Assembly: GCA_026395055.1 (NCBI GenBank)
Contig: JAPLZK010000004.1
Location: 209,432-273,431 of the forward strand
Source: Candidatus Uhrbacteria bacterium
Lineage (GTDB): Bacteria > Patescibacteriota > Patescibacteriia > UBA9934 > GWF2-40-263
Length of the DNA: 64,000 nt
Direction of reading: 5' to 3'
The translations under genes were made by a program, and so were the position numbers. Below, one piece after another: positions 25,340 through 57,384 of this stretch; positions within the stretch are counted from its first letter, which is position 1, and each line of letters begins with the position of its first letter. The notes beneath the pieces were generated by a model. It had not been told where the DNA came from. It was given only the letters and a program-made list of their open reading frames with translations, and did no database searches.

Positions 25340-26060
25340 TTTTACAAAAAGAAAGAGACCCGCAAGGAGTCTCGAGAAGAGAGGGGTGAAAAAGATTCCT
25401 GCGAATCCGAAGGGTTCCTGTTTTGGCGAGGTGTTGTCTTGATCGACTGAATGTTTTTTGAGGACGTCCAGTTGGTGACCGAGATGTTGACTTCGTTACT
25501 AGCAGAGAACCCTTCGGAACGCAACTTGATGTCATTGTTCTTTTGAGGGAACGGCACCAAGAAAGTGGTTAGACGAGCAAGCTCATCGTTTTGTTTTAGC
25601 GAGTTTTCAGGTTCGCTTTAACAGAGTTCGCACGATCGCGGTTCAAGTCTTGCGACTTTGGCTTGAGCATTCCATATCTTGCGACTGGGTTTTGCTTGGC
25701 GTGAACGTTGAAAGGGAACTGTTCCACTTTGGATACGATGGTAATTTTGAACATTCGTTCGGCGACAGTACTTGACCGTCATCTACGAATTGAGCTTGCA
25801 CTCTGTCCAATTTCTCACCGGGTCACCAAGCTGTAGCTGGTTCAAGTTGGTCCGGAGACCTATACGTACGCTTTCGCACACGTAGACTGGGAGTTGTCTC
25901 TCCCGATTCGTTGACCGAAGTCATTGAATCACTTGTTTGGTCATTGAAGACCCATGCAACGAGCGAGCTCGCTTGCACGTGAGAGTAATCTCTCAAGATT
26001 CGCACGACCGAAGCCGTTTGAATCGCCAGGCGTTTGTTCTTGCGAACGTCAGCTGAAGGT
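25340..26060 (-). ncRNA. candidate ~0.7-kb non-coding transcript, class unknown
   Basis: An 870-bp region with no ORF above ~90 aa in any frame. The minus strand has a TTGACG-17-TATTAT promoter at 26067-26095 and a hairpin plus U-run terminator at 25339-25372. Internal imperfect direct repeats are present. Confidence 0.3.
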
Positions 26061-26066
26061 TTTGAA

Positions 26067-26095
26067 ATAATATACGAATAAAATACGAGCGTCAA
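26067..26095 (-). promoter_or_regulatory. minus-strand sigma70-like promoter TTGACG-17-TATTAT
   Basis: -35 at 26095-26090 and -10 at 26072-26067, both read on the minus strand. Confidence 0.4.
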
Positions 26096-48865: not shown

Positions 48866-50977
48866 ATGAAAGAAATTATCCTCAAGGATTCGGTTGCATT
48901 CGACTCAAACATTGATTATCGCAAGGAATTGAATGAAGAACAGCTCGCGGTCGTGGAAAACGGCGACGGGGCGTGTTTGGTATTGGCCGGAGCAGGATCG
49001 GGCAAAACACGAACGATTACCTATCGTGTTGCCTACCTTCTCGAACGTGGCGTCTCACCGCAGAATATTTTGTTGTTGACGTTCACGAACAAAGCATCAA
49101 AAGAAATGCTCGCGCGCGTCGAGCAACTTCTCGGCTCCTATCCAAAAGGATTGTGGGGTGGAACGTTTCACTCGGTCGCGAATCGCATTCTTCGCATGTA
49201 TGCGGACGCGATTGGCTTCACGCAAAACTTTACGATTCTCGATAGTGAAGATTCTGAGTCGCTCATCAAAACGATTTTAAAAGAATTGAATGTCGACACA
49301 AGTGAGCGCAGATTTCCATCTGCATCAAAACTCAACTCGATTCTAAGTTACGCACGCAATGCCGGTCGATCAGTGAAACAGATCGTCGAGGAAAAACATG
49401 AACACTTCTTCGATTTGATCCCAACCATTCAGCGTATCGGTGAAGTTTATGAATTGCGCAAACGACAAGCGGACGCCATGGACTTTGATGACTTGCTTAT
49501 TCGTCTTCGCGATCTTCTTGTCCAGAATCCCGTTGTGCGCGATCGCCTTGCCACGCAGTTTGAATATGTTCTTGTGGATGAGTATCAGGATACGAACGTG
49601 CTTCAGGCACAACTGATCGCCATGCTCGCAAGCGTGCATAAAAATATTCTTGTCGTGGGTGACGATGCGCAGTCTATCTATTCGTTTCGTGCCGCCGAAA
49701 TTAAAAATATTTTATCGTTTCCAGATCAGTATGGAAGTGCAAAGACGTTTAAGTTAGTAACAAACTATCGTTCCAGTCCGGAAATTCTCTCCATCGCAAA
49801 CGAGTCTATTCACAATAATCGCAATCAATTTAAAAAAGATTTAACGGCTGTTCGAGAAAGTGCAGAAAAACCACAGCTTATTCCTGCAGCAAACGCACAA
49901 CAAGAATCGCAATTTATTTCGCAGCAAATCATTACGTTGCGTGACGCAGGGACGCCTCTTCGCGAGATTGCTGTGCTTTTTCGCGCCGCCTTCCACTCGC
50001 AAGCATTGGAGTTCGAGCTGATGCGCAGAGATATTCCTTATGAATATCGTGGCGGACTCAAGTTTTTCGAGAGAGCACACGTGAAAGACATTGTGATGCA
50101 TTTACGCCTCAAGGCGAACTTAAAAGATGAAGTAGCATGGATGCGGGTACTCGGATTGCAGACCGGTATCGGACTTGTGACCGCACAGAAGATGATTCAA
50201 CAGATTCATGGATTTGAATCCCTCGAAGAACTTGTCGAACATCCCATTGGAAGCGGCGCACGCGCATCGGCCGGATGGAAAACGCTTTCGACAACATTAA
50301 AAAAATTTACAACGCAATCAACTCCCTCAGAGTTGATTCGTACGGTTGCATCGAGCGAGTATCGAGCTTATCTCGAAGCAGAATACCCAGACTTCAATGA
50401 TCGTTGTGAAGATATTGAGCAGTTTGCGGTTTTCGCCGAGCAGTACAAAGATCTCACAACATTTTTGACGGATGTTTCACTCACGGCGGATTACGGAATC
50501 ATGACAGAGGAAACACATGGCGATGAAGAGCGATTGATTCTCTCAACCATTCACCAGGCAAAAGGACTCGAGTGGGACGCGGTGTTCATTATGAGTCTTG
50601 TTGATGGAAAGTTTCCAAATGGACGTGCGCTTGAAGAACGAGACGGTCTTGAAGAAGAACGTCGTTTGTTCTATGTCGCAACAACCCGCGCAAGAAAATA
50701 TCTTTACTACACGTACCCGCTCGTCTCTGGAACCGAATCACTTTTGTTCAACCAGCCATCGATGTTCCTTCAAGAACTTGATCCTGCTATGATGGAAGAG
50801 GTGAAATTAAAACGCGAGGTCGCAAAAACAACTTCGTGGAACACAACCGAATGGGATTCCTCCACCTGGGATTCGTCCGACAGTGATGATGGCCCCGCGA
50901 TTGTTCTTGATGATTTGGGGGAAGAGGTAAAGAAGAAGGGAATAAAATCAAGCGGGAGTTTTTTGAGGGATGTCTAG
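48866..50977 (+). CDS. ATP-dependent DNA helicase, UvrD/PcrA/Rep family
   Basis: Helicase motif I GAGSGKT at the N-terminus and UvrD-like motifs through the C-terminus. Confidence 0.9.
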   Translation: MKEIILKDSVAFDSNIDYRKELNEEQLAVVENGDGACLVLAGAGSGKTRTITYRVAYLLERGVSPQNILLLTFTNKASKEMLARVEQLLGSYPKGLWGGTFHSVANRILRMYADAIGFTQNFTILDSEDSESLIKTILKELNVDTSERRFPSASKLNSILSYARNAGRSVKQIVEEKHEHFFDLIPTIQRIGEVYELRKRQADAMDFDDLLIRLRDLLVQNPVVRDRLATQFEYVLVDEYQDTNVLQAQLIAMLASVHKNILVVGDDAQSIYSFRAAEIKNILSFPDQYGSAKTFKLVTNYRSSPEILSIANESIHNNRNQFKKDLTAVRESAEKPQLIPAANAQQESQFISQQIITLRDAGTPLREIAVLFRAAFHSQALEFELMRRDIPYEYRGGLKFFERAHVKDIVMHLRLKANLKDEVAWMRVLGLQTGIGLVTAQKMIQQIHGFESLEELVEHPIGSGARASAGWKTLSTTLKKFTTQSTPSELIRTVASSEYRAYLEAEYPDFNDRCEDIEQFAVFAEQYKDLTTFLTDVSLTADYGIMTEETHGDEERLILSTIHQAKGLEWDAVFIMSLVDGKFPNGRALEERDGLEEERRLFYVATTRARKYLYYTYPLVSGTESLLFNQPSMFLQELDPAMMEEVKLKREVAKTTSWNTTEWDSSTWDSSDSDDGPAIVLDDLGEEVKKKGIKSSGSFLRDV

Positions 50978-53425: not shown

Positions 53426-54631
53426 TTACAGTTCATGGTCGTAGGCTAATCCGCTCGCTCGTTCCTGAAATACAATTGGCAAAAGAGAAGCGCGTGTCCA
53501 TGCGTCAGATCCGTAACGCGATTGAATTTTATCGAGTGCCGAAAGAACAGAAAGATGTTTCTGTTCTTTTTTAAATAAAGAGTTTGGAGCGGATGCGTGC
53601 GAGAGATGCGAGGTGCTGATACCAAGGAGGCGAACTGGTTTGCCTTTGTCGCGGACGATCTCGACCAAGCGCCAGGCGAGCTCGAATAACTGAAATCCAT
53701 CTGCGGTGGCTTCTTGAAACACATGTTGCTTGCTGTTGCTTGAAAAATCACCATAACGAACACAGATGGAGACCGCATTTGCAACAAACCCGTCTCTGCG
53801 CATGCGCCACGCCACTTTTTCGCACATGCCAAGCAAATAGCGCTGCATAAGCACAGGATCGAATGTGTCTTTTGGGAGTGTATAGGAATGTCCGATAGAT
53901 TTTGGATCTACTTCTTCTGAGGAAACTTCGAACGCTTCTCTACCATGCGCGGCTTCATGAAGCCAATAGCCGTATGAATCAAATTCGTCGACGAGTTCTT
54001 CTAAAGGGAACTCGCGAAGTTTTTTGAAATTCATGATGCCAAGATCGTTGAGTCGCGCGCCCATGCGTGAGCCGATGCCACAGAGGTCTGTCAGTTTTAT
54101 GGAATCAAGCCTTGTGATTGCGTCTTCTTCTCGGGTGAGGGTGATTCCGTTTGGTTTCACAAGATCGCTTGAGAGTTTTGCGAGAAGCTTATTTGGCGCA
54201 AGTCCGATGGATGCGGTGATCCATTCCCCACACTCCTCTTTGAGACGTTCTCGCAGTCGTTGTGCGAGACATACGGCACCAAACCAGTCTTTGGCTTGGT
54301 CGGTAATGTCGAGAAACGACTCATCTACACTGAATTCTTGGACGAGTGGAGTAAATTCAAAAAATAATTTGTTGAACCTGTGTGTAATCTCCGAGTACTT
54401 TTCAGGATCACCTGTGATTAAAATGAGACTCGGACAAATCTTTTTTGCTTCCCAGGTGGACATGGCGGTTTTGACACCAAGTTTTTTTGCCTCAATGGAT
54501 GCGGTTGCAACAATTGATCGTTCTGACCGTTTGCCCGTGATTCCGATTGGCTTCCCACGCAAAAACGGATTCGCTTGTTGTTCTACAGAAGCGAAGTAGC
54601 TATTCATGTCGATGTGGAGGATGATTTGAGA
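53426..54631 (-). CDS. dinB: DNA polymerase IV (Y-family)
   Basis: ILHIDMNSYFASVE and Y-family palm and finger motifs. The start was moved to MSQIIL. Confidence 0.88.
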   Translation of the reverse strand, partial: SQIILHIDMNSYFASVEQQANPFLRGKPIGITGKRSERSIVATASIEAKKLGVKTAMSTWEAKKICPSLILITGDPEKYSEITHRFNKLFFEFTPLVQEFSVDESFLDITDQAKDWFGAVCLAQRLRERLKEECGEWITASIGLAPNKLLAKLSSDLVKPNGITLTREEDAITRLDSIKLTDLCGIGSRMGARLNDLGIMNFKKLREFPLEELVDEFDSYGYWLHEAAHGREAFEVSSEEVDPKSIGHSYTLPKDTFDPVLMQRYLLGMCEKVAWRMRRDGFVANAVSICVRYGDFSSNSKQHVFQEATADGFQLFELAWRLVEIVRDKGKPVRLLGISTSHLSHASAPNSLFKKEQKHLSVLSALDKIQSRYGSDAWTRASLLPIVFQERASGLAYDHEL

Positions 54632-54669
54632 CATGGATCGAAACACGCCCAAAAAGGGCGTGTTTATGT

Positions 54670-54915
54670 TTATGAGCTATAGACTTCGACTAGGTGCCAC
54701 TCGAGGGTTTCGCTATCGAGTCTCAGTTTAAAATAATTCGCAATATCTGAGACAGAAAAGTAAAAGATTTTTTTCTGGCCTTCACGAGCGGTGTGAACAA
54801 GGTTCACGTTTTTGATGGAGTAGTTGCGATCGTTCCAGCGCATGTGGAGAGGGCGAACACGGCGATCTGCAAAGGTTGCGAGAACGTCTACGGAATCATG
54901 AAGAATGTTATGCAT
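54670..54915 (-). CDS. hypothetical small protein upstream of dinB
   Basis: 81-aa ORF. May be a Y-polymerase accessory factor, but that is speculation. Confidence 0.45.
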   Translation of the reverse strand: MHNILHDSVDVLATFADRRVRPLHMRWNDRNYSIKNVNLVHTAREGQKKIFYFSVSDIANYFKLRLDSETLEWHLVEVYSS

Positions 54916-55133
54916 AAAATTTTTTGTTTAAGTTTTTAAAAATATGGCGTCGTAAGATTTTTTTCATGCGCCGACCACTCACCGCGGCAAAAATGGATAA
55001 ACGTTTTTTTGGAGCAGGTTTATAACGACGTGCGATGGAAACATATGCGGGTTCACGATAGCCGAGGGCGTAAGTGGGCATAGGCGGGAGGGTTAGAAAG
55101 ATTGGAAGAATTTTGAAAGAAAAGAGAGGCGGT

Positions 55134-55418
55134 TTAAACAGGTGAGAGAAAATTCAGCTCATCCGCAAGTTCTAGGATTCTTTTTTGAAGAATAGATTCA
55201 GGATCCTGGATGTCCAATGTCTGAAGAACATCACAGAGCCCAATAAAGATATTTGCGATCCGTCTTTCAATCTCTTCCGTGTCTTTGTTTCTGATATAAG
55301 CGGTGGAAAGTTTGGTTGTTGCTTCATAAAGACCAAGAATCGCATCTCGAACATCGCGTTTGCCTTCTTCTTGGATGAGGATCTGACCAATTTGTAGGTT
55401 GAGTTCATTTAATGACAT
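55134..55418 (-). CDS. hypothetical small helical protein, possibly a MazG-like NTP pyrophosphohydrolase (tentative)
   Basis: 94 aa with a paired E-rich helix pattern. Confidence 0.4.
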   Translation of the reverse strand: MSLNELNLQIGQILIQEEGKRDVRDAILGLYEATTKLSTAYIRNKDTEEIERRIANIFIGLCDVLQTLDIQDPESILQKRILELADELNFLSPV

Positions 55419-55529: not shown

Positions 55530-56168
55530 TTACACGGGCTGGAATTTTCGAATCACGGCACGAACGACTCCTTGAATAATACAGTCTTGAACGTAAATAG
55601 GATCCATGGTTTTGTTTGCGGGTTGTAAGCGAATGCGGGATGGTTCACGGTAAAATCGTTTGAGGGTTGCAAAGGCATTGTCGAGAAGAGCAACGACGAC
55701 TTCGCCGTTGCGTGGAGATGGATTGCGCTCAATGACGACGAAGTCTCCGTCTAAAATTCCGTCTTCGATCATGGATTGGCCTTTGATTTTGAGAACGTAG
55801 GAGTTTGCACCGTCTAGGACAAAGCTTGCGGGGACGGCCATGGTTTCGTTGTCGTTGATGGCTTCTATAGGTTGTCCGGCGGCGATGAGTCCCATCATGG
55901 GCAAATTCACGACATCTGCGGAAAGTCGGAAGCCTCTGTGGATAGGTTCGGCTTGGGGGACGAGTTCAATGGATCTAGCTTCGCCTTCTTCTCCGATACG
56001 GATCATGCCTTTGTCTACAAGGCTTTGGATGTGTCCATGCACGGTTGCGGAAGAGGAGAGGCGAAAGTGTTCACCGATTTCCCGGTAGGACGGGGCGTAT
56101 CCGCAGTCATCAAGGTGTTTTTTGATGAATGCGAGAACTTCGTTCTGCTTTTTTGTTAAGTTACTCAT
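55530..56168 (-). CDS. lexA: LexA repressor
   Basis: N-terminal wHTH, AG cleavage site (LIAAGQPIEA), S24 peptidase Ser and Lys (GQSM, KRF). Confidence 0.9.
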   Translation of the reverse strand: MSNLTKKQNEVLAFIKKHLDDCGYAPSYREIGEHFRLSSSATVHGHIQSLVDKGMIRIGEEGEARSIELVPQAEPIHRGFRLSADVVNLPMMGLIAAGQPIEAINDNETMAVPASFVLDGANSYVLKIKGQSMIEDGILDGDFVVIERNPSPRNGEVVVALLDNAFATLKRFYREPSRIRLQPANKTMDPIYVQDCIIQGVVRAVIRKFQPV

Positions 56169-56207
56169 ACGTGTGTGGGGAAGTATTCCCGTTTGCGAAA
56201 TTTAATC

Positions 56208-56249
56208 GTTCGCGTTATGTTCGTATTCTAAACCGAACAAAAAGCGAAC
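56208..56249. promoter_or_regulatory. candidate LexA operator: two GTTC-N7-GTTC direct-repeat boxes in inverted orientation (56208-56222 and 56235-56249)
   Basis: gttcgcgttatgttc on the plus strand and gttcgctttttgttc on the minus strand. Located 40 nt upstream of lexA and about 85 nt upstream of metK. Confidence 0.5.
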
Positions 56250-56331
56250 GCAAGAAGGTGTATGTGGATAAGTCTGAATCGATAAGAAAGAGTTGGAGAT
56301 TGAGTCAAAATTTGTTACTCTGTGCGCACTT

Positions 56332-57384
56332 ATGAAAAAGACCGTTGAATCAACTCTGCAAGGTCAGTCAGATAAAGTCTGTGATCAAATCGCAGACGCT
56401 ATTGTAGATGAATACCTTCGTCGTGATCCTGAAGCGCGTGTAGATGTAAACGTGATGGGTTCTCACGGGATGGTTATGATTGGCGGAGAAGTAACATCCA
56501 CAGCAGATTTTGATGTTGGGGCTATTGCAAAAAAGGTTTATACCGAAATTGGATATACCGATGAAATAGAAGTCTTCACAAATATTGAAGAACAATCCCC
56601 AGAAATGAAACGTGCACTGCATGGATCACAAGATACGGTTGTCATAAACGGATACGCCACACATGAGACACGAGAGCGTCTCCCTCGTGGATTGGTTTTT
56701 GCGCACAACATCGCGCGCCGGATTGATGATCTGCGCAAAATGGATCCGTCGTTTTCTTGGTTACGACCTGATGGAAAAGTACAGATCATGACAGAAAAAG
56801 ATCAGGTTGTTGGTGTGACCATTCTTGCGTCACATCATTTGAATATAAAAGATCAGGAAGTAAAGACAGCCATTCTTGAACGTGTTGTCGTTCCTCTACT
56901 TGGTGAAGGGATTCAAATTTTTATTAATCCTATTGGGGTATTTACAGATGTTTGTTTTCGATCAGACTCTGGGGTGAGTGGGCACAAGACGCACGTAGAT
57001 ACGTACGGAGGACTCATTCCCCACGGTGACGCGGTTATGATTGGAAAAGATCCAAGACGTGTTGAACGCGCGGGGGCCTACATGGCGCGTGCGGCAGCAA
57101 AATATCTTGTGGATCAAGATTTAGTGCAATCGGCGATGGTGCAAGCGGTTTATACCCTTGGTCGGTCAGAGCCGATTCATCTTCATGTCGTTGGAATGGG
57201 GGAAAAATCCAGAGGATCAAAGATTGATTTTACAAATCTCATCAAACAGCAATTTGATTTTCGGTCTGAAGCGATCGTTGAGCGGCTGGGCTTACTTAAA
57301 CCCATCTATCAATCTGCAGCCGTCTACGGAAGTTTTGGAAGAGAAGGATTTCCTTGGGAGAGTCAGAAAGAAGATCTGACTTGA
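56332..57384 (+). CDS. metK: S-adenosylmethionine synthetase
   Basis: SDKVCDQIADAIVDEYL...GGEVTS and DP.RVERAGAYMAR MetK motifs. Confidence 0.88.
   Translation: MKKTVESTLQGQSDKVCDQIADAIVDEYLRRDPEARVDVNVMGSHGMVMIGGEVTSTADFDVGAIAKKVYTEIGYTDEIEVFTNIEEQSPEMKRALHGSQDTVVINGYATHETRERLPRGLVFAHNIARRIDDLRKMDPSFSWLRPDGKVQIMTEKDQVVGVTILASHHLNIKDQEVKTAILERVVVPLLGEGIQIFINPIGVFTDVCFRSDSGVSGHKTHVDTYGGLIPHGDAVMIGKDPRRVERAGAYMARAAAKYLVDQDLVQSAMVQAVYTLGRSEPIHLHVVGMGEKSRGSKIDFTNLIKQQFDFRSEAIVERLGLLKPIYQSAAVYGSFGREGFPWESQKEDLT

Follow-up and report, generated by a model that had tools for sequence, protein, structure and literature searches.

The locus analysed here lies in a 64-kb stretch of DNA from Candidatus Uhrbacteria, which we call the window and whose first nucleotide is position 1. 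Its central gene, lexA, occupies positions 55530..56168 of the minus strand and encodes a protein of 212 amino acids with a winged-helix DNA-binding domain and an S24 peptidase domain (PF01726, PF00717). The protein scores 184 bits against the NCBIfam model TIGR00498 (cut-off 111) and matches solved LexA structures over its whole length. Residues A97-G98, S132 and K170, which align with the cleavage site and the catalytic pair of the E. coli protein, are invariant in 25 homologues; the best homologues all come from Uhrbacteria or Parcubacteria, and one of them, annotated in a metagenome-assembled genome of Candidatus Uhrbacteria, has exactly the same sequence. The recognition helix, SSSATVHGHI, is one that we take to resemble that of B. 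subtilis LexA.

Several reading frames follow lexA on the same strand. The first, the small ORF orf94 (55134..55418, minus strand), separates lexA from the dinB module. It is called as a gene in the sequences L001 and L002, has no tblastn match in any of the 80 related loci described below and no Pfam or NCBIfam match, and is apparently a strain-specific insertion into the module. Next comes orf57 (54908..55081, minus strand), a possible small ORF of uncertain coding status whose stop overlaps the start of orf81; only the four closest relatives share it, and L001 and L002 have no gene call for it. In the closest relatives, orf57 lies only about 100 nt from lexA. The conserved small protein encoded by orf81 (54670..54915, minus strand), directly 5' of dinB, is modelled confidently as an all-beta protein (predicted structure, pLDDT 89.8) and gave no informative match in structure or family searches. 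A hairpin with a perfect 10-bp stem, AAACACGCCC-TTTTT-GGGCGTGTTT (54641..54665, minus strand), takes up the space from the stop of orf81 to the ATG of dinB; weak termination, processing and stabilisation are its possible roles. The last gene of this same-strand cluster is dinB (53426..54634, minus strand), which encodes a Y-family DNA polymerase IV of 402 amino acids (PF00817, PF11799; NF002677, DNA polymerase IV, 267 bits against a cut-off of 256) and is called in L001 and L002. In the window, neither recA nor uvrA is present.

On the other side of lexA, transcribed divergently from the plus strand, is metK, which starts with the ATG at 56332 and encodes three S-AdoMet synthetase domains. A preliminary description of this DNA had placed two GTTC-N7-GTTC boxes between lexA and metK, at 56208-56222 on the plus strand and at 56235-56249 on the minus strand, and both coordinates and strands proved correct: GTTCGCGTTATGTTC is read on the plus strand at the former site, while the latter carries GAACAAAAAGCGAAC, that is, GTTCGCTTTTTGTTC on the minus strand. 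Both boxes match GTTC-N7-GTTC exactly and in direct orientation, and each is more fully a GTTCG-N6-GTTCG direct repeat with an 11-bp period. The proximal box (box 1 of that description) extends over 56208..56223 on the plus strand, where it reads GTTCGCGTTATGTTCG, or CGAACATAACGCGAAC in the lexA sense; the distal box (box 2) extends over 56234..56249 on the minus strand and reads GTTCGCTTTTTGTTCG in the lexA sense. Together they make up the inverted repeat with 17-bp arms that had also been pointed out. Its arms (56207-56223 and 56234-56250) are 17 nt each, complementary at 15 of 17 positions (88%), and 10 nt lie between them. No GAAC-N4-GTTC palindrome occurs in 56150-56300.

The bare GTTC-N7-GTTC pattern is not enriched within the 64-kb window (6 matches against 3.96 expected). 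Two such boxes on opposite strands and no more than 60 bp apart arose in only 3 of 1000 dinucleotide-preserving shuffles. Scored with a position weight matrix (PWM) of 18 columns made from related operators, the distal box reaches 29.8 bits and the proximal box 26.3 bits; the next-best site in the 64-kb window, at 10.6 bits, is at noise level.

The preliminary description had named conservation in related genomes as a check on its reading, and here the evidence is extensive. For comparison we used the lexA loci of 80 other Uhrbacteria species, whose LexA proteins are 59-95% identical to that of the window; the related flanking DNA that was scanned amounts to 597 kb. The box pair lies upstream of lexA in almost all of these loci (79/80 orthologous lexA promoters), an equivalent of the distal box scoring at least 14 bits by PWM in 79 of the 80. 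Its two half-sites are intact in 77/79 and 76/79 relatives, and those of the proximal box (CGAAC) in 73/79 and 65/79. The spacing of the boxes, start to start, is exactly 27 nt in 56 of 81 promoters, the window counted, and 26, 32 or 33 nt in a few others. What varies among the relatives is the flanks of the operator and part of the stretch between the boxes. Sites that reach 20 bits are confined to lexA promoters throughout the 597 kb and the 64-kb window, save for one site in each of three related genomes. A single strong box of 22-27 bits is seen at a tRNA-Asp promoter in three related Uhrbacteria genomes (L077 7607-7624, L080 7682-7699, L081 6717-6734 (-)), directly 5' of a TATAAT and about 20 nt before the tRNA-Asp gene.

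The position of the boxes relative to the lexA promoter is equally constrained. The promoter elements and a lexA start site near 56218 were predicted from consensus. The predicted -10, TAGAAT (56225..56230, minus strand), conforms to a consensus TAnaAT in which the key positions are T in 51/56, A in 56/56, A in 55/56 and T in 55/56 of the aligned promoters. The predicted -35, TTGCGT (56248..56253, minus strand), is 17 nt from the -10 and shares the first GT of the distal box. Across the aligned promoters, T at -3 and G at -2 never change, while -1 is C in 49/56 and T in 7/56; CTTGC stands directly 5' of the distal box in nearly all related loci. The consensus of the 56 promoters with exact spacing, the window included, is TTGC-GTTCGgTTTTTGTTCG-gtc-TAnaAT-A-CGAACAtAAagCGAAC. 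In this arrangement the distal box fills the predicted spacer between -35 and -10, and the proximal box begins one base past the predicted -10 and spans the predicted start. The predicted -10 itself sits in the 10-nt stretch between the boxes, with the dyad axis of the operator inside it. A simple promoter scan of the window did not flag these elements, because the -35 is weak.

The lexA promoter also carries a second conserved cis element. The sequence TTATCCACA (56263..56271, minus strand, lexA sense) matches the DnaA-box consensus at 9/9 positions and is located 9 nt 5' of the lexA -35. Exact copies upstream of lexA and on the same strand number 71 in the 80 related loci, and other exact copies number 6 in the 597 kb against about 4.6 expected by chance; with at most one mismatch, the element is found in about 78 of 81 lexA promoters. 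Its distances from the distal box fall into two classes, 11-14 nt and 32-36 nt, about two helical turns apart, which suggests that a second factor may act at the lexA promoter through TTATCCACA from one face of the helix. No cluster of DnaA boxes was found within the 64-kb window. That TTATCCACA might be a general promoter element was considered and rejected for the lexA flanks, where 71 of the 77 exact copies in the 597 kb are at lexA; the element recurs at the promoter of a candidate structured RNA, to which we return below.

The functional unit is the single box rather than the inverted pair, because boxes occur alone in more distant lexA promoters, before an orf81-dinB operon and before candidate cassettes of other organisms. 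A metagenome-wide scan for GTTCGNTTTNTGTTCG gave at least 120 matches, those listed being nearly all single chance matches in unrelated organisms. The informative ones among the matches listed are L093, L125, L127 and L135, together with the candidate cassettes of L109, L118 and L130. The lexA promoter of L135, whose LexA is 48% identical to that of the window, has a single box in its -35/-10 spacer, TTGACA-C-GTTCGGTTTATGTTCG-G-TATAAT, and nothing downstream; that of L093 (LexA 53% identical) likewise has a lone box in the -35/-10 spacer and nothing downstream. L125 provides another distant lexA promoter with the box. In L127, an orf81-dinB operon without lexA is preceded by TTGACA-GTTCGGTTTTTGTTCG-G-TATTTT. 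In L109 (4906-6817) the box is followed by an ORF with weak, sub-threshold matches to the RecA/ImuA family and then by a distant DinB-like match. In L118 (3468-4146) and L130 (8076-8751) it lies 5' of homologous ORFs that are ImuA-like by eye only, the L118 ORF having no NCBIfam match. L109, L118 and L130 are metagenome contigs of 52-55% GC, and the same 16-mer, GTTCGCTTTTTGTTCG, stands 5' of their candidate mutagenesis cassettes; in L118 and L130 it is set between TTGAC and the -10-like CCTATGAT. The extended sequence of the box, beyond its architecture alone, may thus be common to distant lineages.

An inverted repeat with two 17-nt arms, 15/17 complementary and closed by a 10-nt loop, invites the thought that the DNA or RNA structure matters in itself, as a cruciform or as a hairpin such as an attenuator or a 5'-UTR element. 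The arms do not bear this out. The six positions that vary give 330 cells, of which 226 can pair; the mean in shuffled data is 226.8. Two mismatches are themselves conserved, G.G in 23/55 and T.T in 42/55. Arms that fail to covary point to selection on each box separately, as is proper to protein sites rather than a hairpin. Moreover, the distal arm is upstream of the predicted start and so would be outside the lexA mRNA, and the boxes of L093, L127 and L135 have no partner to pair with. We therefore reject a hairpin function for the inverted repeat, which we consider extremely improbable. A second proposal would make the operator bidirectional, box 2 placing metK under SOS control as well. 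The preliminary description had put box 2 about 85 nt upstream of metK; the distance is essentially right, as the box ends 82 nt before the metK ATG, yet the box itself is better assigned to lexA than to metK. It is true that metK is the divergent upstream neighbour in 65 of the 80 loci, and that a few genomes have no more than 90-110 nt between the two genes, which brings the promoters close together. Against this, metK is absent from the other 15 loci, other genes intervene in several, and the distance from the box to the metK start ranges from 41 to 311 nt among the relatives, while the operator keeps its position with respect to lexA. In addition, metK seems to have a promoter of its own. 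Its predicted extended -10, TGtTACTCT (56313..56321, plus strand; identified by consensus only), is about 10 nt before the ATG and follows the form TGnTAnnnT; a TTTGnTAnnnT is found 10-25 nt 5' of metK in most relatives, regardless of how far away the operator is. The box is some 79-94 nt 5' of the predicted metK start site in the window and hence outside the core promoter. Because the distance varies, metK may be missing altogether and an extended -10 is at hand, we regard box 2 as a lexA element and reject metK as a target of the operator; SOS control of metK through it seems to us very improbable. Given how near the predicted extended -10 is to the ATG, the metK mRNA would be nearly leaderless.

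What remains to be weighed is the identity of the protein that occupies the boxes of lexA. Autoregulation is the rule for LexA. The earlier suggestion that box 1 overlaps the lexA promoter and serves autoregulation is supported by the fact that the proximal box spans the predicted start and by the conservation in 79/80 loci; the reading of the boxes as SOS boxes of the alphaproteobacterial type gains support from the presence of the pair before lexA in 79/80 species, at a fixed position relative to -35 and -10. In our interpretation the pair of boxes constitutes the lexA operator, and both are very probably SOS boxes to which LexA binds. One could instead envision a different regulator, with GTTC half-sites that resemble SOS boxes by coincidence. 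Such a view can appeal to the fact that LexA binding is here deduced from sequence, and to the strong single box in the tRNA-Asp promoter of L077, L080 and L081: this is an odd and unexpected target for an SOS repressor and counts against LexA. It can also appeal to the second conserved element, TTATCCACA, which implies that at least one further factor probably acts at the lexA promoter. However, the box accompanies lexA in 79 of 80 species, recurs in the distant lexA promoters of L093, L125 and L135, and precedes what look like typical SOS targets, namely the orf81-dinB operon of L127 and the cassette of L109 with its weak ImuA/RecA-like and DinB-like matches. GTTC-N7-GTTC is, furthermore, a documented LexA motif (PMC8565304). 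On this evidence a regulator other than LexA is very improbable, and LexA almost certainly binds the boxes, thereby shutting off its own gene and the downstream gene for an error-prone polymerase.

How LexA would bring this about can be pictured in some detail. We infer that each box most likely accommodates one LexA dimer, as does the alphaproteobacterial-type GTTC-N7-GTTC SOS box, the 11-bp period placing both half-sites on the same face of the helix. Two dimers, probably cooperating with each other, would bracket the -10 and exclude RNA polymerase from the predicted start site. Expression of lexA would thus be repressed, and through read-through so would that of the small ORFs and dinB, so that a minimal lexA-orf81-dinB module would be tightly autoregulated. 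Upon DNA damage, RecA-stimulated self-cleavage of LexA would lift repression and render the cassette damage-inducible.

Inclusion of dinB in this scheme derives from the organisation of the cluster. The same-strand order lexA-(variable)-orf81-dinB is maintained among the relatives, with orf81 in 57/80 loci and DinB in 52/80, several of the remaining loci being cut by contig ends. The domain matches of the gene products and the conserved cluster uphold the earlier view of dinB, the small ORFs and lexA as a compact SOS module. The PWM scan of the window likewise agreed with the preliminary description in finding that neither dinB nor the helicase-like ORF at 48866 is preceded by a box, and no related locus has a box between lexA and dinB by PWM. 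Because lexA, orf81 and dinB form a conserved same-strand cluster, we infer, as the simplest reading, that dinB is co-transcribed from the LexA-controlled promoter, and the lack of a box upstream of dinB is then expected. No intrinsic terminator is predicted on the minus strand between lexA and dinB in the window. Two features would count against co-transcription: the strong hairpin between orf81 and dinB, and the long, variable gap between lexA and orf81, which in the relatives measures 250-1300 nt and is variable in sequence.

As mentioned above, TTATCCACA is found a second time in a promoter of the window, that of a candidate large structured RNA of about 0.7 kb (about 715 nt) at 25345-26060 on the minus strand. 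This region has no credible ORF and ends in an intrinsic terminator near 25345-25375. Its promoter (26112-26067) reads TTATCCACA-N7-TTGACG-N17-TATATT, the general form being TTATCCACA located 7-8 nt 5' of TTGAC-N17/18-TAnnnT, and the TTATCCAC[A/T] promoter is kept in 7 of 9 sequences (the window and eight relatives). The candidate lies in a gap devoid of genes, with prmC on one side and prfA (or an NTP-transferase gene) on the other; all relatives examined have such a gap in this place, 0.45-1.1 kb long. The fold z-score of 25345-26060 is -4.76, and at the 5' end of the candidate a conserved GCAA loop is enclosed by stems with compensatory changes. Searches of the candidate at 25.3-26.2 kb for Rfam families, tRNA and tmRNA gave no match, and the 64-kb window as a whole contains no tRNA gene and no Rfam family at the gathering threshold. 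The segment looks like a structured RNA that has so far been neither described nor annotated. A second LexA site, considered at 26074-26091 on the minus strand, was rejected: it scores only 10.6 bits and falls within the promoter that bears TTATCCACA, and although TTATCCACA and both promoter hexamers are retained in the relatives, the GTTCG repeats are lost.

It is tempting to speculate that lexA-orf81-dinB is under dual control, by LexA and by a factor binding TTATCCACA at 7-9 nt, or at about 30 nt, 5' of the lexA -35. The most plausible candidate for this factor would be DnaA, acting as a sensor of replication status, and the TTATCCACA regulon would include the RNA of about 0.7 kb. We put this forward tentatively and regard it as rather unlikely. 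If true, a small TTATCCACA regulon would, in bacteria of the candidate phyla radiation, link both translesion synthesis and a new large RNA to replication stress.

These properties inspire comparisons with LexA operators of other bacteria. In Firmicutes and Actinobacteria the LexA box is CGAAC-N4-GTTCG. The half-site pentamer, CGAAC/GTTCG, is common to that box and to the one described here; unlike in the palindrome, however, the half-sites of Uhrbacteria are repeated directly, with an everted inner pair (GTTCG-N10-CGAAC). The SOS network of Patescibacteria, the superphylum to which our organism belongs, was reportedly the subject of a comparative and in vitro study by Sanchez-Osuna, Barbe and Erill (Environ Microbiol 2017;19:3465). 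The regulator is the same in both cases, and the kind of motif seen here has probably already been described, and validated in vitro, for Patescibacteria. PMC7739468 cites the 2017 paper among three references for independently evolved direct-repeat LexA motifs; in the literature searched, we found no open description of the motif itself. GTTC-N7-GTTC is the LexA motif of the Alphaproteobacteria (PMC8565304, PMC4951493) and is also reported in Acidobacterium capsulatum. The alphaproteobacterial-type box and ours share two direct GTTC sequences 7 nt apart, in the promoters of lexA and of translesion-polymerase genes. In contrast, our host is a member of the Patescibacteria and no proteobacterium, its unit is longer and has a T-rich spacer, GTTCG-N-TTT-N-TGTTCG, and at lexA two units face each other head-to-head around the -10. 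Tandem LexA sites 1-10 bp apart are common in lexA promoters across clades, those of E. coli and Verrucomicrobia among them, and cooperative binding of LexA, which makes autoregulation tight, has been shown in Verrucomicrobia (PMC4951493). The arrangement in Uhrbacteria is similar in having two close LexA sites in the promoter of the repressor's own gene. Whereas the sites of E. coli and Verrucomicrobia are tandem palindromes, those of Uhrbacteria are mirror-image direct repeats 10 bp apart, with the -10 on the dyad axis.

The double operator cleanly exemplifies a type of switch that is already known and is nothing new in kind. Direct-repeat motifs, tandem sites at lexA and an analysis of the SOS response in Patescibacteria are already in the literature, and the understanding of the SOS response is left unchanged. 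What the present analysis contributes is a comparatively validated operator, at the level of sequence, for an uncultivated lineage, along with a clear prediction of its promoter architecture. The operator also illustrates that one half-site, CGAAC, lends itself to rearrangement both as direct repeats and in mirror image, a point that bears on the evolution of LexA motifs. For the biology of Uhrbacteria, our findings suggest that the SOS system is a very small, self-contained cassette made up of lexA, a conserved protein of 81 amino acids and DNA polymerase IV.
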